Source: an uncultured Verrucomicrobiae bacterium (GTDB lineage Bacteria; Verrucomicrobiota; Verrucomicrobiia; Limisphaerales; JAFGQR01). From it: 64,000 nt of DNA. This document shows, piece by piece, positions 28,501-43,500 of this stretch. The position numbers are program-made. Location: positions 288,001 to 352,000 of the forward strand of contig CAWBHS010000072.1 in assembly GCA_963788655.1 (NCBI GenBank). Direction: 5' to 3'. Numbering within the stretch: position 1 is the first letter of the stretch; every line of letters starts with the position of its first letter.

Positions 28501-31500
28501 GTCTGGTCCTCGTATGCGGTGGCTGCAACAAACAGGAATCCAAACTGAGCCAGCTCAAGACCAAAGCCACTCAAGGCGATGCCGAGGCGCAATTCCAGCT
28601 TGGGAAGATTTATGACGACGGTCGGCTCGTTCCCAAGGATGGTATCCAGGCCTTTACTTGCTACCGCCAGGCCGCCGAACAAGGGCACGCGGAGGCGCAG
28701 TTTCGCGTGGCGTCCATGTATGCCAGCGGTTACGGCGTAACCCTGGACGAGCCGAATCATTGAAGTGGATGCGCCGGGCCGCCGAGAACGGCGTGACCAA
28801 AGCGCAATACAACCTGGGCGTTGACTTTTATCACGGGCGTGGCACCGCCAAAGATTTCAGCCAGGCCTTTAAGTGGTTTCAGAAAGCTTCGGCCAAAGGC
28901 GACCCCGACGCCCAAGCCAATTTGGGCAGCATGTATGCCGATGGTGAAGGCGTGGAGAAGAATCTCCAAAAGGCGCTGCCATGGTTTCAGCGTGCCGCTG
29001 ATCAAGGGCAGCCGGCGGCGCAGAACAACCTTGGACAACTTTATTTCAGTGGTGAAGCCGTCGCGACGAATCCGGTGGAGGCAGTGAAATGGTTCCGCAA
29101 AGCTGCGGAGCAGGGATTTGCGGTCGGACAATACAATCTGGGGACGGCCTATCACGAAGGCACCGGCGTGGAAAAGAATGATCAGACCGCGGTGGAATGG
29201 TTCCGCCGGGCCGCAAAGCAAAATCTGCCGCAGGCACAATACGCGCTGGCGGGCCTCTACCGCCGCGGCGAAGGGGTATCCGAGGACAGCCGCGAATCCT
29301 TTCAATGGCTCAAGCAGGCCGCCGCCCAGAATTTCGCGCCCGCCCAATTGAAACTGGGAATGAGTTACCTGGTAGGCGACGGCACCACTACAAATCTGGA
29401 TGAAGCCATCCGGTGGCTTCGCCGGGCCGCCGGGCAGAATGAGGCCGAAGCGCAGGGCACCCTCGCCTTCCTGTATTGTGAAGGAAAAGTGGTCGCACAA
29501 GACATGAATGAAGCCTTGAAATGGTTTCACCAAGCCGCCGATGCGGGCAACGCGGAGGCCGAACGTAATTTGGGGATTCTGTACCAGAAGGGTCAAGGAG
29601 TTGAAAAAGATCTGGTCGAGGCGACCAAGTGGTTTCGTCGCGCGGCTGAGCAAGGCGATCCCCAAGCCCAAAATCATCTGGCGAACCTCTACGAAAATGG
29701 AACCGGCGTGGAGAAGGATATTCAGGCCGCCATCAAGTGGTATCGTCAGGCGGCCGAGCAAGGGGATGCTGTCGCTCAAAACAACTTGGGCGCCATCTTT
29801 GGCAAGGGCGAAGACGTAGCCAAAGATCCACAACAAGCGCTCTTCTGGTATCGCAAAGCAGCGGACCAAGGCGTCGCCATGTCGCAATACAACATCGCTG
29901 AACTGTATGCCAACGGAAGCGGCGTGACCCAGGATATTGCGCAAGCCATCCAGTGGTACAAGCAAGCCGCCGAACAAGATTTCATCATGGCCCAAAACGT
30001 CCTGGCCAAGTTGTATTACCAGGGCGAGCGCGTCCCTAAAGACGAACAGCAGGCTGCCTATTGGTTCCAGCGGGCGGCTGAACATGGAGACGCCAATTCC
30101 CAAAATCTGCTCGGTTTGCTGTACGCCATGGGAGAAGGCGTGGAAACCAATTACGTCGAGGCCTATAAGTGGCTGGACATCGCCGCCGCCAACGGCCACC
30201 CCCATGCGTTGGCCAGCCGGGCGAAGGTTTCCTTGCAAATGGACCCGGACCAACTTCGGGAAGCCCGGCAACGCGCCAGAGAATTTCTGGACCGACAGCC
30301 GACCAATGCGCCGCCGGCTCCAGGGAAAGCCAAGCCAACTCCGTGAGTAAAGCGCGACCCCTGGCAATCACTCAGAGTCGCCACCACTCCACCCCGGACC
30401 GCCACCAAAAACAGCCATACGTTTTGCTGGCCTTCTTGGGGCGAGGGCCAGATGATCCGCTGCCAAGCGTTAGCTTATTATGTTCATAATGATGATAACG
30501 CCGGAGTGCGCTCCGGCAGCGAAGGTCGGCGGTCTGGCGGATGTGATCCACGGCCTGTCGCAGGAATTGGCCATCCGCGGCCATGCGGTGGAGATCATTC
30601 TGCCCAAGTACGACTGTATGCGGTACGACCGCATCCACGGTCTGGTGAAGACGTACAGTGACCTGTGGGTGCCGTACCATAACCAGTGGATTCACTGCGA
30701 CGTGTACTTCGGGTATGTGGACAGCTTGAAATGTTTCTTTATCGATCCGCACTCAGCCCACAACTTCTTCAATCGCGGCGCGTGTTACGGCCTCAAAGAT
30801 GACACGGAACGTTTCGCGTTTTTCTGCCGGGCCGCGTTGGAGTTCATGCTCAAGACCAACAAGCATCCGGACATCATTCATTGCCACGACTGGCAAACCG
30901 GCCTGGTTCCTGTGCTCCTCTATGAAACGTACCAGCAGTTGGGGATGACGCATCCACGGGTTTGCTACACGCTGCACAACCTCGGGCACCAGGGCATCCA
31001 CGGCGAGAAGATCCTCCGGCAGGTCGGCCTGAATCCCGGACCCCTCATGACCCCCGAACGCTTGTTGGACGACCGTCGGCCCGGCGCCATCAACTTGATG
31101 AAAGGCGGGATCGTCTATTCAAATTTTGTAACCACCGTTTCGCCCCGTTACGCGTCCGAAATTCATCACAGCCACTTGGGCATGGGGCTCCAGCGGATCC
31201 TGCACGTCCACCAGCAGAAATTCGGCGGCATCCTGAACGGCGTGGACTACACCGCGTGGAACCCGGAGATCGACGGCCACATTGCCCACCGTTATGGCCT
31301 GGGCAATTTGCAGGACAAATACCACAACAAGGGAGCCCTGCGCGCCCGGCTCTGGCTGCGCCACGATTTTAAACCGATCGTTTCCTTTGTCGGCCGGCTG
31401 GATTACCAGAAAGGGGTTGGTCTCATTCTGCAAGCAGTGCCCTATTGCTTGCAGCACGGTTGCCAGGTGGTCGTTTTGGGTTCGAGCCCGCATCGGAGCG

Positions 31501-40500: not shown

Positions 40501-43500
40501 CGGGCTTGGAACCGGATCTTTTCGCCGGTTTCTTTTCCTCCATCCGCAACTTGTCCCGTTTGAGCGCCTGCATCGACATCGGCCATGTAGGCATTCGGCA
40601 GGCGCGGAAAGCGTTTGCGCAGGTGCATCCCGGCGAAGATGTATGCGCGCTGAAGTCCAATCCTTCCCGCCTGCCGCAACTCATGCCGGACGTGGAAGCC
40701 GCAGTGCGAACGGCTTTACCAACCGTGCTGCACCTGATCGAAACGCTCGGTGCGCTGGGTAAACCGATTCACTTCCATTTGCACGATGGCCACCCACTTT
40801 CCACCTTCAGCCCGTTCGGCGTCTCGGATCACTTGAGCTTTTTCCAGGAGATGCCGCTGCCCTTCGATTGCCATGACCAGCAATCGTCGCCGTTGATGTT
40901 TGGTCCGAACGGCCTTTCCCGAATTGTCGCCAAAGCGATGGAGGCCATCGGTCGCGAACGGGTTTCGTTCACATTGGAAATTCATCCGACCTTCGAACGC
41001 CTGGCGTTGGGCGACGCGGCCAACCTCTTTGAGCATTGGCGTGACCGGACCAACGCCGAGATGATGAACCACTGGCTCGCGGTGCTCAGTCGAAACCATG
41101 AACTACTGCTGGCGGCAATCAGCAAGCGGGCGGCCGATGCGTTGGTGGCGCACTTGATACCTCGCCCGACGCCGTTGGTTTTGAACTCGCCCAGGCGACA
41201 GATAATGGCTCCGGTGATTCCTTGCGGATTCGCAACAATTTTGGAATCGCGTGCGATCAGTCCGCCGTTCTGAAGAGAATTGCTGAGCTCGGCTGTCGTC
41301 TATTGATTCGCCGATTCTTCACTTGGTTTTTGACTTCTTTCCGGTCTGCTTTTCTTTCGCACTGGAGACTGATACGGGCACCGTCGTGGTCGAGCTGTTT
41401 CCGGAGGCGTCAGTGCAGCGGACGGTCAGGGTGTAAACGCGATCCGCGCTTTTGCTGCTCTCCGCGCGCAGATTGGCTGTGAGCGGGCCCGTGAGCTCCC
41501 AGTCAGGACTGGTGTTGTCGCCCTTGCCAGTAGCCGGTTCACTGCTGTTGATGGCAATGAGCTCGACTGCCAGCGTCGGATCGCAATTGTCCGATACGGC
41601 GACGTTCAAGGTGACCGCCACCATCTTCTTATTGGCAGGCCACAAAGTGGGCTGATCGACGGTTACGCTGGCGATGACCGGAGCAGTGACATCTTTCACT
41701 GAGAGCGTCATCGTGCATACGCTGCGATTGCCGGCAGCATCCGTGACGGCCAGTTCGACCGGATAATCTCCCGAGACCCACCAACGTTCCGGCGACTGGA
41801 CTTTGGCTGAACACCAATGATTCCGCCGGGGTGCAGCCATCGGTCGCAGTTGCGAGCGAAATCAAATCAGGAATGGTTGCCTGGCAAGCATCATTCGCCG
41901 GCAGTTCCGAAGTAGTGGGGCAAACGATCTGCGGGGGCGTGGTGTCCACAACGGTGACCGTTACCGTATCCTCGGACGATTCACCCGCCGGGTCGGTGAC
42001 TTTCAACGTAAAGGTGTTAATGCCATTGCCCACCACCACGGGAATCGCGACCTCGGTTCCCAGCAAGTGGCCGTCGCAATACCATTCATAAGTCAGCGCA
42101 TCGCCGTCCGGATCCTGCGACGCGGCGCCATCGAGCCTTACCGTTGTGCCCGCGCCGGCGCATTCGACCTGTTGATCGGGGCCCGCATCGGCGACGGGAG
42201 GATTGTTGGCTGGGGCCCGATTCAAGGAGAGCAGAAACCATTCAGCGGAGCGGTTGATCACGCCATAGCCCAAGATGTGGCCGCCATCACTGATGTTGTA
42301 GGCGGCGAGCAGTTCCCATCCGGAGCCGGGAGGCAAGAGCGTGTTGAGGTCCACCATGGTCCCGTTTTCCCAGAGAAAGGCGTGACCGGCACCAGTGGCA
42401 TCTGCCGATTCACCGACCACCTGGCCGGATTGATTCATGTCATAGACACTGCTGTAAGATCCACCAAGAGTTTCCAAATCCGTCAGGGCCCCGTCCGCGT
42501 AAATGAAACCGTGCCAGCCCCGGGACGCTGTAAGCGAATCTCCGCTGACCTGCCCTTTTCGATTGATCGCCACCGGGCTGGTGTAGCCTCCGCCCAAGGT
42601 CCCCAAGTCGTGCAAGTTACTGCCATCGTAGAGAAAACCGTGCGTTTCCCGATTCTCTGCCGTGTTCGCAAAACCGGTGATCCAACCGTCGTCATTGATA
42701 TCCACCGCCGAACTATAAGTGCCGCCCAGCGTGCCCAGGTCGGTCATGGAACCATCCCGCCACAGAAACGCGTGCGTCTCCTGGTTGTCGGTTGTGGTGG
42801 ATTCCCCCACCACCCAACCGCGGCCGTTCAGTCCGTAGCACGAACTGTAGGCCCCGCCCAAGGTTCCCAAATCGATCATGCTGTGGCCGTCATAGAGAAA
42901 AGCGTGCGTATCGTAGTTGTTGGCGATCACTGAATCACCGGCTACCCAACCGGCGTCGTTGATGGCCACGGCGGAACAGAACCACCCACCCAAACTGCCC
43001 AGACTTTCCATGCGACCATCGCGAAATAGGAACGCATAAGTGGCGGCGTCATTCGCCACGGCGGAATACCCGGCAACTTGTCCGCTCGCGTTGATGGCGA
43101 AGGCGGCGCTGTAGGAACCACCCAACGTGCCGAGGTCCATCGTCATCGCCTCGCTAAAAACGTAGGCGTGATCTTCGGCATTGCCCAAGGTCATGGAATC
43201 TCCGGCCACCACCCCTTGCGCGTTCACCGCGTAGGCCGTGGCATAGCTGCCGCCCAAGGAGCCCACGCGGACGATGGTCGGCGTCTGGCTCTGAGCGCGA
43301 GTTTGAACAAGAAGAACGGCGAGAACTGCGATCCAAGTTCCCACCCCATACAACTGGTTGGCTTGGTGTTTCATGCCTTCGCCTTCAGCATCAGTTAAGC
43401 CAAAACGTTGCTGCGGCTAATCCGGCGCAGTATCAAGACTTCGCTGTCCCTTTGGCAACAACACGTGGCTCAGAATGGGTCAACTGAAGCGCACGATGAG

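Follow-up and report, generated by a model that had tools for sequence, protein, structure and literature searches.

Gene order and the two dikinases

The window, that is the whole stretch of 64,000 nucleotides of an uncultured Verrucomicrobiae bacterium analysed here, carries two plant-type dikinase genes and the barrel gene g04999 downstream of the glycogen synthase gene glgA. This arrangement, proposed in an earlier note on this DNA, is confirmed by the ORF coordinates:

30480-31949, + strand: glgA, ADP-glucose-type glycogen/starch synthase, 489 aa; Pfam Glyco_transf_5 (E 1.3e-69)
31950-32492, no strand: gap between glgA and the GWD gene, 543 bp, with dispersed repeat elements (278 BLASTN matches within its own genome)
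32493-36068, + strand: full-length GWD-type alpha-glucan, water dikinase, 1191 aa; Pfam Ig_N_CWD1 (twice), GWD1_pHisD, PPDK_N
36069-36380, no strand: gap between the GWD and PWD genes, 312 bp, with the same dispersed repeat (175 BLASTN matches within its own genome)
36381-39890, + strand: PWD-like ORF as annotated, 1169 aa; Pfam AP_endonuc_2 (19-251), GWD1_pHisD, PPDK_N
36381-37190, + strand: first barrel, a predicted metal TIM barrel, residues 1-270 of the PWD fusion protein; Pfam AP_endonuc_2 (E 3.7e-20)
37281-39903, + strand: PWD-type dikinase core, from about residue 300 to the end; Pfam GWD1_pHisD (717-827), PPDK_N (864-1152)
39936-41273, + strand: g04999, second and very divergent predicted metal TIM barrel, 445 aa as annotated

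The glgA product matches NCBIfam NF001905 (GlgA) with 854 bits at a cut-off of 560. BLASTN revealed a repeat element of ~210 bp common to both gaps flanking the GWD gene (80% identity). An ORF of 161 aa in the first gap (32021-32506) has no Pfam match and is probably not a gene.

The first dikinase displays the domain order of plant and algal GWD1 (EC 2.7.9.4; potato R1, Arabidopsis SEX1; central domain in PDB 9HA9/9QVI), namely two CBM45-like Ig domains followed by the GWD central, phosphohistidine and ATP-grasp domains. Its residues 301-732 match the GWD central domain in PDB 9ha9 (E 5.1e-94) and its translation contains the phosphohistidine loop VSHVAVRARN, in agreement with the earlier description of these features. 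The second dikinase contains the loop LSHLGVRARQ, has no match to 9ha9 at E<=0.001 and is 40% identical to Chlorokybus PWD over 931 aa, as compared to 24% for the GWD-type enzyme. The identity of 28% previously given for the two dikinases was obtained again, over 637 aa. Since domain architecture, PDB match, reciprocal identities and phylogeny (see below) agree, we assign the two proteins as GWD and PWD orthologs, respectively, as had been proposed. The dikinase core of the second enzyme resembles that of plant and algal PWD/GWD3 (EC 2.7.9.5). However, the bacterial protein lacks CBM20 and carries at its N-terminus, as previously noted, a TIM barrel instead (AP_endonuc_2). CBM20 is present in 34 of the 38 next-nearest PWD representatives, in the architecture CBM20, pHisD, PPDK_N.

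The annotated PWD ORF with its 1169 aa, domains and loop held up, except for the last 14 codons, which are out of frame. The reading frame shifts by one base near 39847-39849; continued in the +1 frame, translation from 39850 gives IYLVQARPQQGLGSYER up to a stop codon at 39901-39903 rather than at 39890, matching the C-terminal family consensus IYLVQSRPQQGL. Similar splits in other genes of the window, TreS and MalQ, point to an assembly error as the probable cause, with gene decay as a less likely alternative.

Folds and invariant residues of the two barrels

The AF2 model of the first barrel (pLDDT 93.7) has 3wqo (MJ1311) as its closest solved structure (VIA Z 26.9, rmsd 2.4, 246 aligned), followed by the Endo IV-family AP endonuclease of ASFV (VIA Z 24.4). 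Among 46 sequences with identities down to 41%, twelve His/Asp/Glu positions are invariant: H70, H104, E135, D168, H171, H197, H199, H201, E202, D208, H210 and E244. In sequence-profile alignments with MJ1311 (E 1.3e-11), M. tuberculosis Endo IV, ASFV AP endonuclease and E. coli Endo IV, the invariant residues coincide with the H/H/E/D/H/H/DxH/E pattern of 3wqo, 5zhz, 6khy and 1qtw. Thus, the first barrel shares fold and ligand pattern with Endonuclease IV (Nfo) and MJ1311 (PDB 3WQO), but is found in a context of glucan metabolism rather than DNA repair and is fused to a glucan dikinase. MJ1311 itself, which has no known function, reportedly retains all nine zinc ligands of Endo IV without the DNA groove. 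The sole NCBIfam model matched is that of CbiR (E 2.4e-8), at 33.8 bits far under the family cut-off of 105, and no cobamide genes are located nearby. CbiR, a cobamide-remodelling enzyme, is described as a phosphodiesterase of the AP endonuclease 2 superfamily with a non-DNA substrate (PMC7733943).

For g04999, the earlier description as a TIM barrel without Pfam match stood, whereas the start of the 445-aa ORF probably needs correction. More than 1200 relatives exist, which measure 326-385 aa among the 120 matches listed, and alignments begin at about residue 60; the 5' end is therefore probably over-extended and the true start is probably the ATG at 40089 (Met52), giving a gene at 40089-41273. 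The protein has no match in Pfam, PDB sequences or NCBIfam. Its AF2 model (pLDDT 83.6) adopts a xylose-isomerase-like TIM barrel at residues 57-408, with all top structure matches tied at VIA Z 17.6-19.2. Invariant positions are H118, H151, D152, E186, D214, H217, H279, H281, H283, D284, H286, D298, H299, E348 and H350. Comparison with the first barrel by hhalign returned 88.5% probability, the tool aligning the first five ligand positions only; at the remaining ones a resemblance of motifs is seen by eye.

Distribution and pairing with the dikinases

We collected 80 genome loci by their PWD core, which represent at least seven phyla (Verrucomicrobiota, Desulfobacterota/Thermodesulfobacteriota, Nitrospirota, Acidobacteriota, Chloroflexota, anammox Planctomycetota and Gammaproteobacteria). 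PWD carries the first barrel as a fusion in 75 of them, g04999 is the next gene in 62, GWD lies upstream in 49 and glgA is present in 21 (20 copies adjoining the dikinase genes at 59-83% identity, plus one weak match at 22%). Of the 18 loci lacking g04999, 13 end less than 1 kb from the PWD match, while in two (L072 and L092) the gene was not found within 10 kb downstream of PWD. In addition, g04999 is fused to the C-terminus of PWD in 12 proteins (42-63% identity), that is, some other bacteria carry this barrel at the opposite end of the dikinase instead.

The reverse situation is provided by 18 GWD-only loci from the same order. In 15 of these the first barrel is encoded as a separate protein after GWD (48-71% identity), the other three loci ending at or within GWD, so that all 15 informative loci have the separate barrel; g04999 occurs in none of the 18. 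In genome G476 the genes are divided between two contigs, one with GWD and the barrel, the other with g04999 and a PWD that lacks the barrel, and in G680 no barrel follows GWD. Taken together, the first barrel tracks GWD, and this Endo IV-like partner, be it separate or fused to the next gene, sets the bacterial enzyme apart from plant and algal GWD1; g04999 tracks PWD and is seen only with PWD. The module is rare among relatives: within the order, 29 of 401 genomes including this one possess it, and a sample of 400 further genomes from elsewhere in the phylum contained none.

A FastTree phylogeny of the dikinases (119 sequences, 833 columns), with seven bacterial GWDs as outgroup (branch 1.88), separates a clade of 54 with all 34 CBM20-labelled sequences (support 0.959) from a clade of 53 comprising the PWD of the window and the TIM-fused and g04999-fused forms (support 0.914).

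The gene neighbourhood links the module to storage-glucan metabolism, since the genes for GlgA, branching enzyme, GH57 and a GH13-like protein of 422 aa are conserved in synteny with it; a phosphorylase gene is a further neighbour. The GH13-like gene belongs to the module at 48 of 111 loci and is encoded on a different contig in the present genome. The window also contains genes for GlgE, TreS-Mak and MalQ.

A putative system for reversible glucan phosphorylation

On balance, we lean towards the view that the four genes work together as a module with which the bacterium phosphorylates its own storage alpha-glucan in a reversible manner, the barrels acting as phosphatases. GlgA would make the glucan. 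The GWD-type dikinase, in a putative operon with glgA unlike its plant and algal counterparts, would transfer phosphate from ATP via phosphohistidine to glucosyl residues (C6 in plants), and the PWD-type enzyme would place a second phosphate on glucan that already carries one (C3 in plants). The resulting charges may loosen ordered chains, allowing glucanases to degrade them, and the GH13-like enzyme could be supplied from its other contig. Both barrels would then remove the phosphates at a metal-dependent centre of the endonuclease IV type, the first as partner of GWD and g04999 as partner of PWD. Dikinase homology and synteny with glucan genes support the phosphorylation predicted earlier. 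The analysis establishes gene content, domain architectures, folds, invariant residues, synteny, fusions and the rule of pairing; from these we infer which glucan is the substrate, that C6 and C3 are modified and, most of all, that the barrels are phosphatases.

The earlier suggestion that the barrels are candidates for the missing phosphatase has become firmer. Because the invariant ligand positions align with the endonuclease IV family, the barrels pair with the dikinases and twelve fusions to PWD exist, we regard both as putative metal phosphoesterases, with phosphoglucan phosphatase as the most likely activity. No glucan phosphatase of the DSP type (DSPc) was detected at the Pfam cut-off in this genome, which is 86% complete.

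Less probable, though the most serious competitor, is a scenario in which the dikinases act on storage glucan and the barrels are no phosphatases. Their metal site might grip the phosphate of pre-phosphorylated glucan for targeting or recognition, substituting for CBM20, whose place the first barrel occupies, and its invariant aromatic residues F27, F30, W32, W43 and W246 could form a sugar platform; or the barrels might be sugar isomerases or epimerases working on released products. Indeed, phosphoesterases cannot be told apart from ketose epimerases and isomerases by comparing folds, many ketose 3-epimerases scoring at nearly equal Z. However, a separate barrel also follows GWD, which retains its own CBM45 pair, and four metal ligands suffice for ketose epimerases as compared to the twelve invariant positions found here. 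Moreover, the top matches at sequence level are Endo IV-family proteins, MJ1311 and CbiR, not epimerases.

It is rather improbable that the dikinases target a different polysaccharide or a small molecule, in the manner of rifampicin phosphotransferase and PEP synthase, to which they are distantly related. The only NCBIfam matches are indeed sub-threshold ones, to models of PEP synthase and of rifamycin phosphotransferase, but the full GWD architecture is kept, with its central domain and its CBM45-like pair, the module has the glucan genes described above as neighbours, and GlgE, TreS-Mak and MalQ are encoded in the window. A recent lateral gain from an alga, with the genes now decaying or idle, would agree with the patchy distribution and the frame break, yet is very improbable given the large separate clade of bacterial PWD forms with bacteria-only partners and fusions in at least seven phyla, only 40% identity to algal PWD, dikinase frames otherwise open over >1150 codons, uniform composition across the window and splits that speak for assembly error.

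Lateral transfer had been invoked for the bacterial sequences in a GWD tree of 2018 (Fig. 9 in PMC6260743). Thus, bacterial GWD homologues were already known, if mentioned in passing, and the earlier statement that reviews call such machinery unknown in prokaryotes agrees with a 2026 review (PMC13666283) but has to be qualified in view of that tree. Our literature search found no paper on the gene cluster or its barrels. If the proposed module exists, phosphorylation of storage glucan would be reversible in some bacteria, by means of a previously undescribed kind of phosphatase. The barrels would be functional stand-ins for eukaryotic SEX4, LSF2 and laforin, with which they would share the removal of C6 and C3 phosphate from glucan, permitting its degradation, as well as the provision of two enzymes for two dikinases. 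In contrast to the cysteine-based DSP fold of these enzymes, the barrels are metal TIM barrels, unrelated in fold and chemistry. A kinase fused to a phosphatase with which it shares its polymer substrate would seem pointless, except where the two are regulated or differ in position specificity.

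The two dikinases of the glgA cluster

The cluster consists of four genes:

30480–31949, co-directional with the other three cluster genes: glgA, with a Pfam starch-synthase catalytic domain
32493–36068, co-directional: alpha-glucan, water dikinase (GWD)-type protein of 1191 aa; Pfam Ig_N_CWD1 (twice), GWD1_pHisD and PPDK_N
36381–39890, co-directional: phosphoglucan, water dikinase (PWD)-type protein of 1169 aa; Pfam AP_endonuc_2 (residues 19–251), GWD1_pHisD and PPDK_N
39936–41273, co-directional: g04999, an ORF of 445 aa without Pfam match

The ORFs, lengths and Pfam architectures proposed in an earlier note were thereby reproduced, including AP_endonuc_2 in the second dikinase and the absence of any Pfam domain from g04999. 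NCBIfam identifies the glgA product as GlgA (854 bits as compared to a cut-off of 560) and returned no model naming either dikinase of the window.

The reaction of GWD (EC 2.7.9.4) places the beta-phosphate of ATP on glucosyl residues at C6. The first dikinase contains all the parts of the plant and algal enzyme, that is a tandem of N-terminal CBM45-type domains (two Ig_N_CWD1 stretches, E 2.1e-45 in Pfam), the GWD central domain at residues 301–732 (PDB 9ha9, E 5.1e-94, a match already claimed in the earlier note; 9qvi, E 5.7e-93), GWD1_pHisD at 735–846 and a C-terminal ATP-grasp domain (PPDK_N). The phosphohistidine loops previously assigned to the two dikinases were found in the translations, and we take the catalytic histidine of the GWD-type enzyme to lie in the loop VSHVAVRARN.

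PWD (EC 2.7.9.5) acts at C3 and requires a pre-phosphorylated glucan. Plant and algal PWD carry an N-terminal CBM20, whereas the second dikinase has the AP_endonuc_2 barrel instead and, according to Pfam, no CBM_20. Its core is nearer to PWD than to GWD, as judged by sequence identities, by the lack of a match to the GWD central domain 9ha9 (PDB search, E≤0.001) and by a tree branch of length 1.88. Identity to a Chlorokybus PWD is 40% over 931 aa for the second dikinase and 24% for the first, and the two window enzymes share 28% over 637 aa, the percentage stated earlier. Searching the second dikinase against 1.84 billion representatives retrieved 515 proteins at E≤1e-30. The PWD architecture of CBM20, pHisD and PPDK_N was present in 34 of 38 mid-ranked representatives scanned, among them four eukaryotic records (one Chlorokybus, one labelled Mesen1 by JGI and two Porphyridium); the record of a Porphyridium purpureum representative names it phosphoglucan, water dikinase.

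For the tree (FastTree, LG+gamma, 119 sequences, 833 columns), sequences were labelled by domain content, and representatives shorter than 820 aa or with fewer than 700 core residues covered were left out; the GWDs among the 119 are all bacterial. Seven bacterial GWDs are split from 112 PWD-type sequences by the branch of 1.88. All 34 CBM20-labelled sequences, together with 20 unscanned ones, form a clade of 54 (support 0.959), and the PWD-type protein of the window falls into a clade of 53 (support 0.914) with TIM-barrel-fused and g04999-fused forms. Five more TIM-fused sequences branch below both large clades, on a weak backbone (0.147 at the node joining these two clades).

Phosphohistidine and ATP-grasp domains are both present in the PWD-type ORF, although the assembly has its last 14 codons in the wrong frame. 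The frame is lost near 39847–39849, and from 39850 the alternative frame gives IYLVQARPQQGLGSYER followed by a stop, in agreement with the family consensus IYLVQSRPQQGL. An assembly indel is the likeliest cause, because the genes for TreS (at least three frames, 18486–19831) and MalQ (two frames, 22966–25105) are also split in the same window. Within 22 kb, the frame is broken in three genes that are otherwise conserved, which suggests assembly indel errors rather than three pseudogenes. Two public DNA runs contained small shares (0.05–0.06) of the stretch, with four 151-letter contig pieces that lie outside 39805–39871, and no RNA run was listed for it. Short dispersed repeats occupy all three gaps of the cluster (31950–32492, 36069–36380 and 39891–40088, with 278, 175 and 66 matches in the genome, respectively), the first two having in common an element of ~210 bp at 80% identity. 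One gap repeat overlaps a 5' extension of the g04999 ORF that is itself probably false. The cluster genes of relatives are nearly contiguous.

Folds and putative metal sites of the two barrels

The N-terminal region of the PWD-type protein (residues 1–270, hereafter the first barrel) is confidently predicted (pLDDT 93.7) to adopt a xylose-isomerase-like TIM barrel fold, with Z scores of 26.9 (3wqo), 24.4 (6ki3) and 22.0 (8rly). MJ1311 (PDB 3wqo) is the nearest solved structure (rmsd 2.4, 246 aligned residues, 23% identity), followed by the AP endonuclease of ASFV, a member of the endonuclease IV (Endo IV) family (Z 24.4), and then by ketose epimerases (Z <24). A profile search of PDB likewise returned MJ1311 (E 1.3e-11), Endo IV of M. 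tuberculosis (3.7e-4), the ASFV enzyme (3.4e-3) and, for its first half only, E. coli Endo IV (0.025). The trinuclear centre of Endo IV has nine ligands, in the E. coli enzyme H, H, E, D, H, H, D, H and E. Across 46 sequences with identities down to 41%, H70, H104, E135, D168, H171, H197, H199, H201, E202, D208, H210 and E244 are invariant in the first barrel, and H70, H104, E135, D168, H171, one of H197/199/201, D208, H210 and E244 match the nine-ligand set. In the profile search the invariant residues align with the series H/H/E/D/H/H/DxH/E of 3wqo, 5zhz, 6khy and 1qtw, any single alignment being partial; this series we take to be the pattern of the trinuclear centre. MJ1311 reportedly keeps all nine ligands and has no DNA groove. 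The genomic context argues for a barrel substrate other than DNA.

The second barrel, g04999, is far more divergent. As a single sequence it had no match in Pfam, NCBIfam or PDB, and its profile met PDB only with a chance match (E 0.15). In the ESM Atlas it matched unnamed bacterial clusters and one AP_endonuc_2 cluster (score 0.90), the top clusters being 100% bacterial; its family has more than 1200 members, and wherever one of the 120 listed bears a name, this is 'hypothetical protein'. The predicted fold is the same kind of TIM barrel (pLDDT 83.6), with all families tied at Z 17.6–19.2 (19.0 for 3wqo, 18.9 for 6ki3, 17.8 for 5zhz). Profile–profile comparison with the first barrel by hhalign gave a probability of 88.5% and paired H118, H151, E186, D214 and H217 of g04999 with H70, H104, E135, D168 and H171, respectively. 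Further invariant residues, H279/281/283, D284, D298-H299 and E348, resemble the second half of the first-barrel motif by eye only.

What the barrels do can be read in two main ways. They may hydrolyse phosphate from phosphoglucan, or they may bind glucan or isomerise sugars without any phosphate hydrolysis, which is the main rival. The fold matches of both barrels to the ketose 3-epimerase/sugar isomerase branch equal those to the Endo IV family in strength. Epimerase ligands do not discriminate here, since the four shared ligands of that single-metal site are a subset of those present. For phosphate hydrolysis speaks the nine-ligand match of the first barrel; moreover, its sole NCBIfam match, under cut-off, is the phosphodiesterase CbiR, a published superfamily member whose substrate is a phosphodiester within a cobamide (PMC7733943). 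The DSP-family glucan phosphatases SEX4, LSF2 and laforin have a dual-specificity phosphatase domain, whereas Pfam detects no DSPc in the window cluster; in the genome of this organism (86% complete, 5.6% contamination), the best DSPc match reaches 22.1 bits as compared to a cut-off of 33.5.

Conservation of the module and pairing of barrels with dikinases

The TIM-PWD fusion is frequent in metagenomes, where 96 of the 120 best clusters (52–66% identical) carry PF01261 and both dikinase domains. Automatic naming by JGI calls the fusion phosphoglucan, water dikinase, and NCBI names it PEP/pyruvate-binding domain-containing protein. Scanning one genome per species yielded 143 stretches with relatives, the best 80 of which were analysed as loci. 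These stem from MAGs labelled Verrucomicrobiota, Desulfobacterota/Thermodesulfobacteriota, Nitrospirota, Acidobacteriota, Chloroflexota, anammox Planctomycetota and Gammaproteobacteria, the closest (57–59% identity) being labelled Verrucomicrobiota or Limisphaerales, which makes a verrucomicrobium the probable host of the window. One locus (L053) stems from a record that bears no MAG label.

Gene content of the best 80 of 143 loci
Barrel fused upstream of PWD: 75/80
g04999 immediately downstream: 62/80
GWD upstream: 49/80
glgA within the locus: 21/80 (one at just 22% identity)

Among the 18 loci without g04999, 13 stop less than 1 kb past the PWD match, and two (L072 and L092) lack it despite 10 kb of downstream sequence.

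Among relatives, the module is patchy: in the order, GWD1_pHisD occurs in 29 of 401 genomes, this one included, with both dikinase types in 10 carriers and the GWD type alone in 18. Co-occurrence across the phylum is uninformative, because none of 400 other genomes sampled carries GWD1_pHisD. In 15 of the 18 GWD-only loci, a free-standing homologue of the first barrel (48–71% identical) lies directly 3' of GWD, the remaining three contigs stopping at or inside GWD, and g04999 is found in none of the 18. One genome (G476) has its dikinases on separate contigs, the barrel accompanying GWD, and PWD, which lacks a barrel, being followed by g04999. In 12 proteins, a PWD-type dikinase continues at its C-terminus into g04999 (over 333–351 aa, at 42–63% identity); a thirteenth match spans 67 aa only. 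Thus, the loci, G476 and the fusions pair the first barrel with GWD and g04999 with PWD. G680 is an exception, in that no barrel follows its GWD; here a different contig carries the barrel, in fusion with PWD. A GH57-like gene behind the barrel in another genome (G005) was tested as a relative of g04999 and proved unrelated.

A possible glucan phosphorylation cycle and its surroundings

Reversible glucan phosphorylation is an accepted hallmark of eukaryotic starch metabolism and of Lafora-type glycogen metabolism. According to a 2026 review, it is not known if prokaryotes phosphorylate their glycogen, or by what means (PMC13666283), and a 2026 preprint uses GWD to mark eukaryotic starch and lists only a few starch-like prokaryotes. 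According to the legend of its Fig. 9, a 2018 paper has a GWD tree that includes bacterial sequences, with lateral transfer suggested (PMC6260743). Our literature search found no paper describing a bacterial dikinase operon, the TIM-PWD fusion or the barrels.

The genes, their domains, the folds, the invariant sites, synteny, fusions and pairing are established by the analysis, whereas substrate, phosphorylated positions and phosphatase chemistry are inferred. In the most likely scheme, GWD and then PWD would phosphorylate the glucan made by GlgA, which, by analogy with plants, would open ordered glucan chains. A glucanase may break down the opened chains, and the two barrels would remove the phosphates, one per dikinase. 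It is a tentative and rather doubtful proposal that the barrels are non-DSP phosphoglucan phosphatases of a new type with an Endo IV-type metal centre, one for each dikinase (C6 and C3), in which case the GWD/PWD pair would be an old bacterial invention of which eukaryotes took the dikinases while recruiting other phosphatases. An operon of this kind, conserved in bacteria and combining the two dikinases with a pair of candidate new-type phosphatases and a dedicated glucanase, would open prokaryotic glycogen phosphorylation to direct testing; the cluster would also supply new enzymes for starch modification and bear on the origin of the eukaryotic starch-mobilising machinery.

The candidate glucanase emerged from clustering of all ORFs of 111 dikinase loci. 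A GH13-like protein of 422 aa (partial Pfam matches to hDGE_amylase and Alpha-amylase) is encoded in 48 of them, ≤400 bp after g04999 in 33 loci and directly behind the free barrel in eight GWD-only loci. The copy of this genome, 73% identical, lies outside the window at C9:98213–99478 (-), on another contig; a CBM48 match (C9:100142–100336) is found ~660 bp from it. Genes for branching enzyme, GH57 and phosphorylase also recur in the dikinase loci, and a DUF4912 protein of ~270 aa was seen in 12 of the 111 (L018:8860–9660 and 11 others). Beta-amylase (GH14) had no match at cut-off in this genome.

Upstream of glgA lies a further set of genes, most of them for alpha-glucan enzymes:

16347–18116: GlgE
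18486–21832: TreS-maltokinase fusion, its TreS part spread over at least three frames
21881–22843: DHH-family gene, within this set
22966–25105: MalQ/GH77, broken in two

With this set (16347–25105) added to glgA and the dikinases, the window is a large alpha-glucan island with GlgA and GlgE routes. The cluster is flanked on the glgA side by an upstream gene for a Sel1 protein of 13 repeats (28658–30346) and, downstream, by convergent genes for PKD/Ig-domain proteins (41319–43374 (-)), one with DUF3466; neither flank is conserved in the related loci inspected. Between MalQ and glgA, 25315–26559 (-) encodes a 414-aa protein in which a CBM48/AMPK-type glycogen-binding module precedes an esterase domain.
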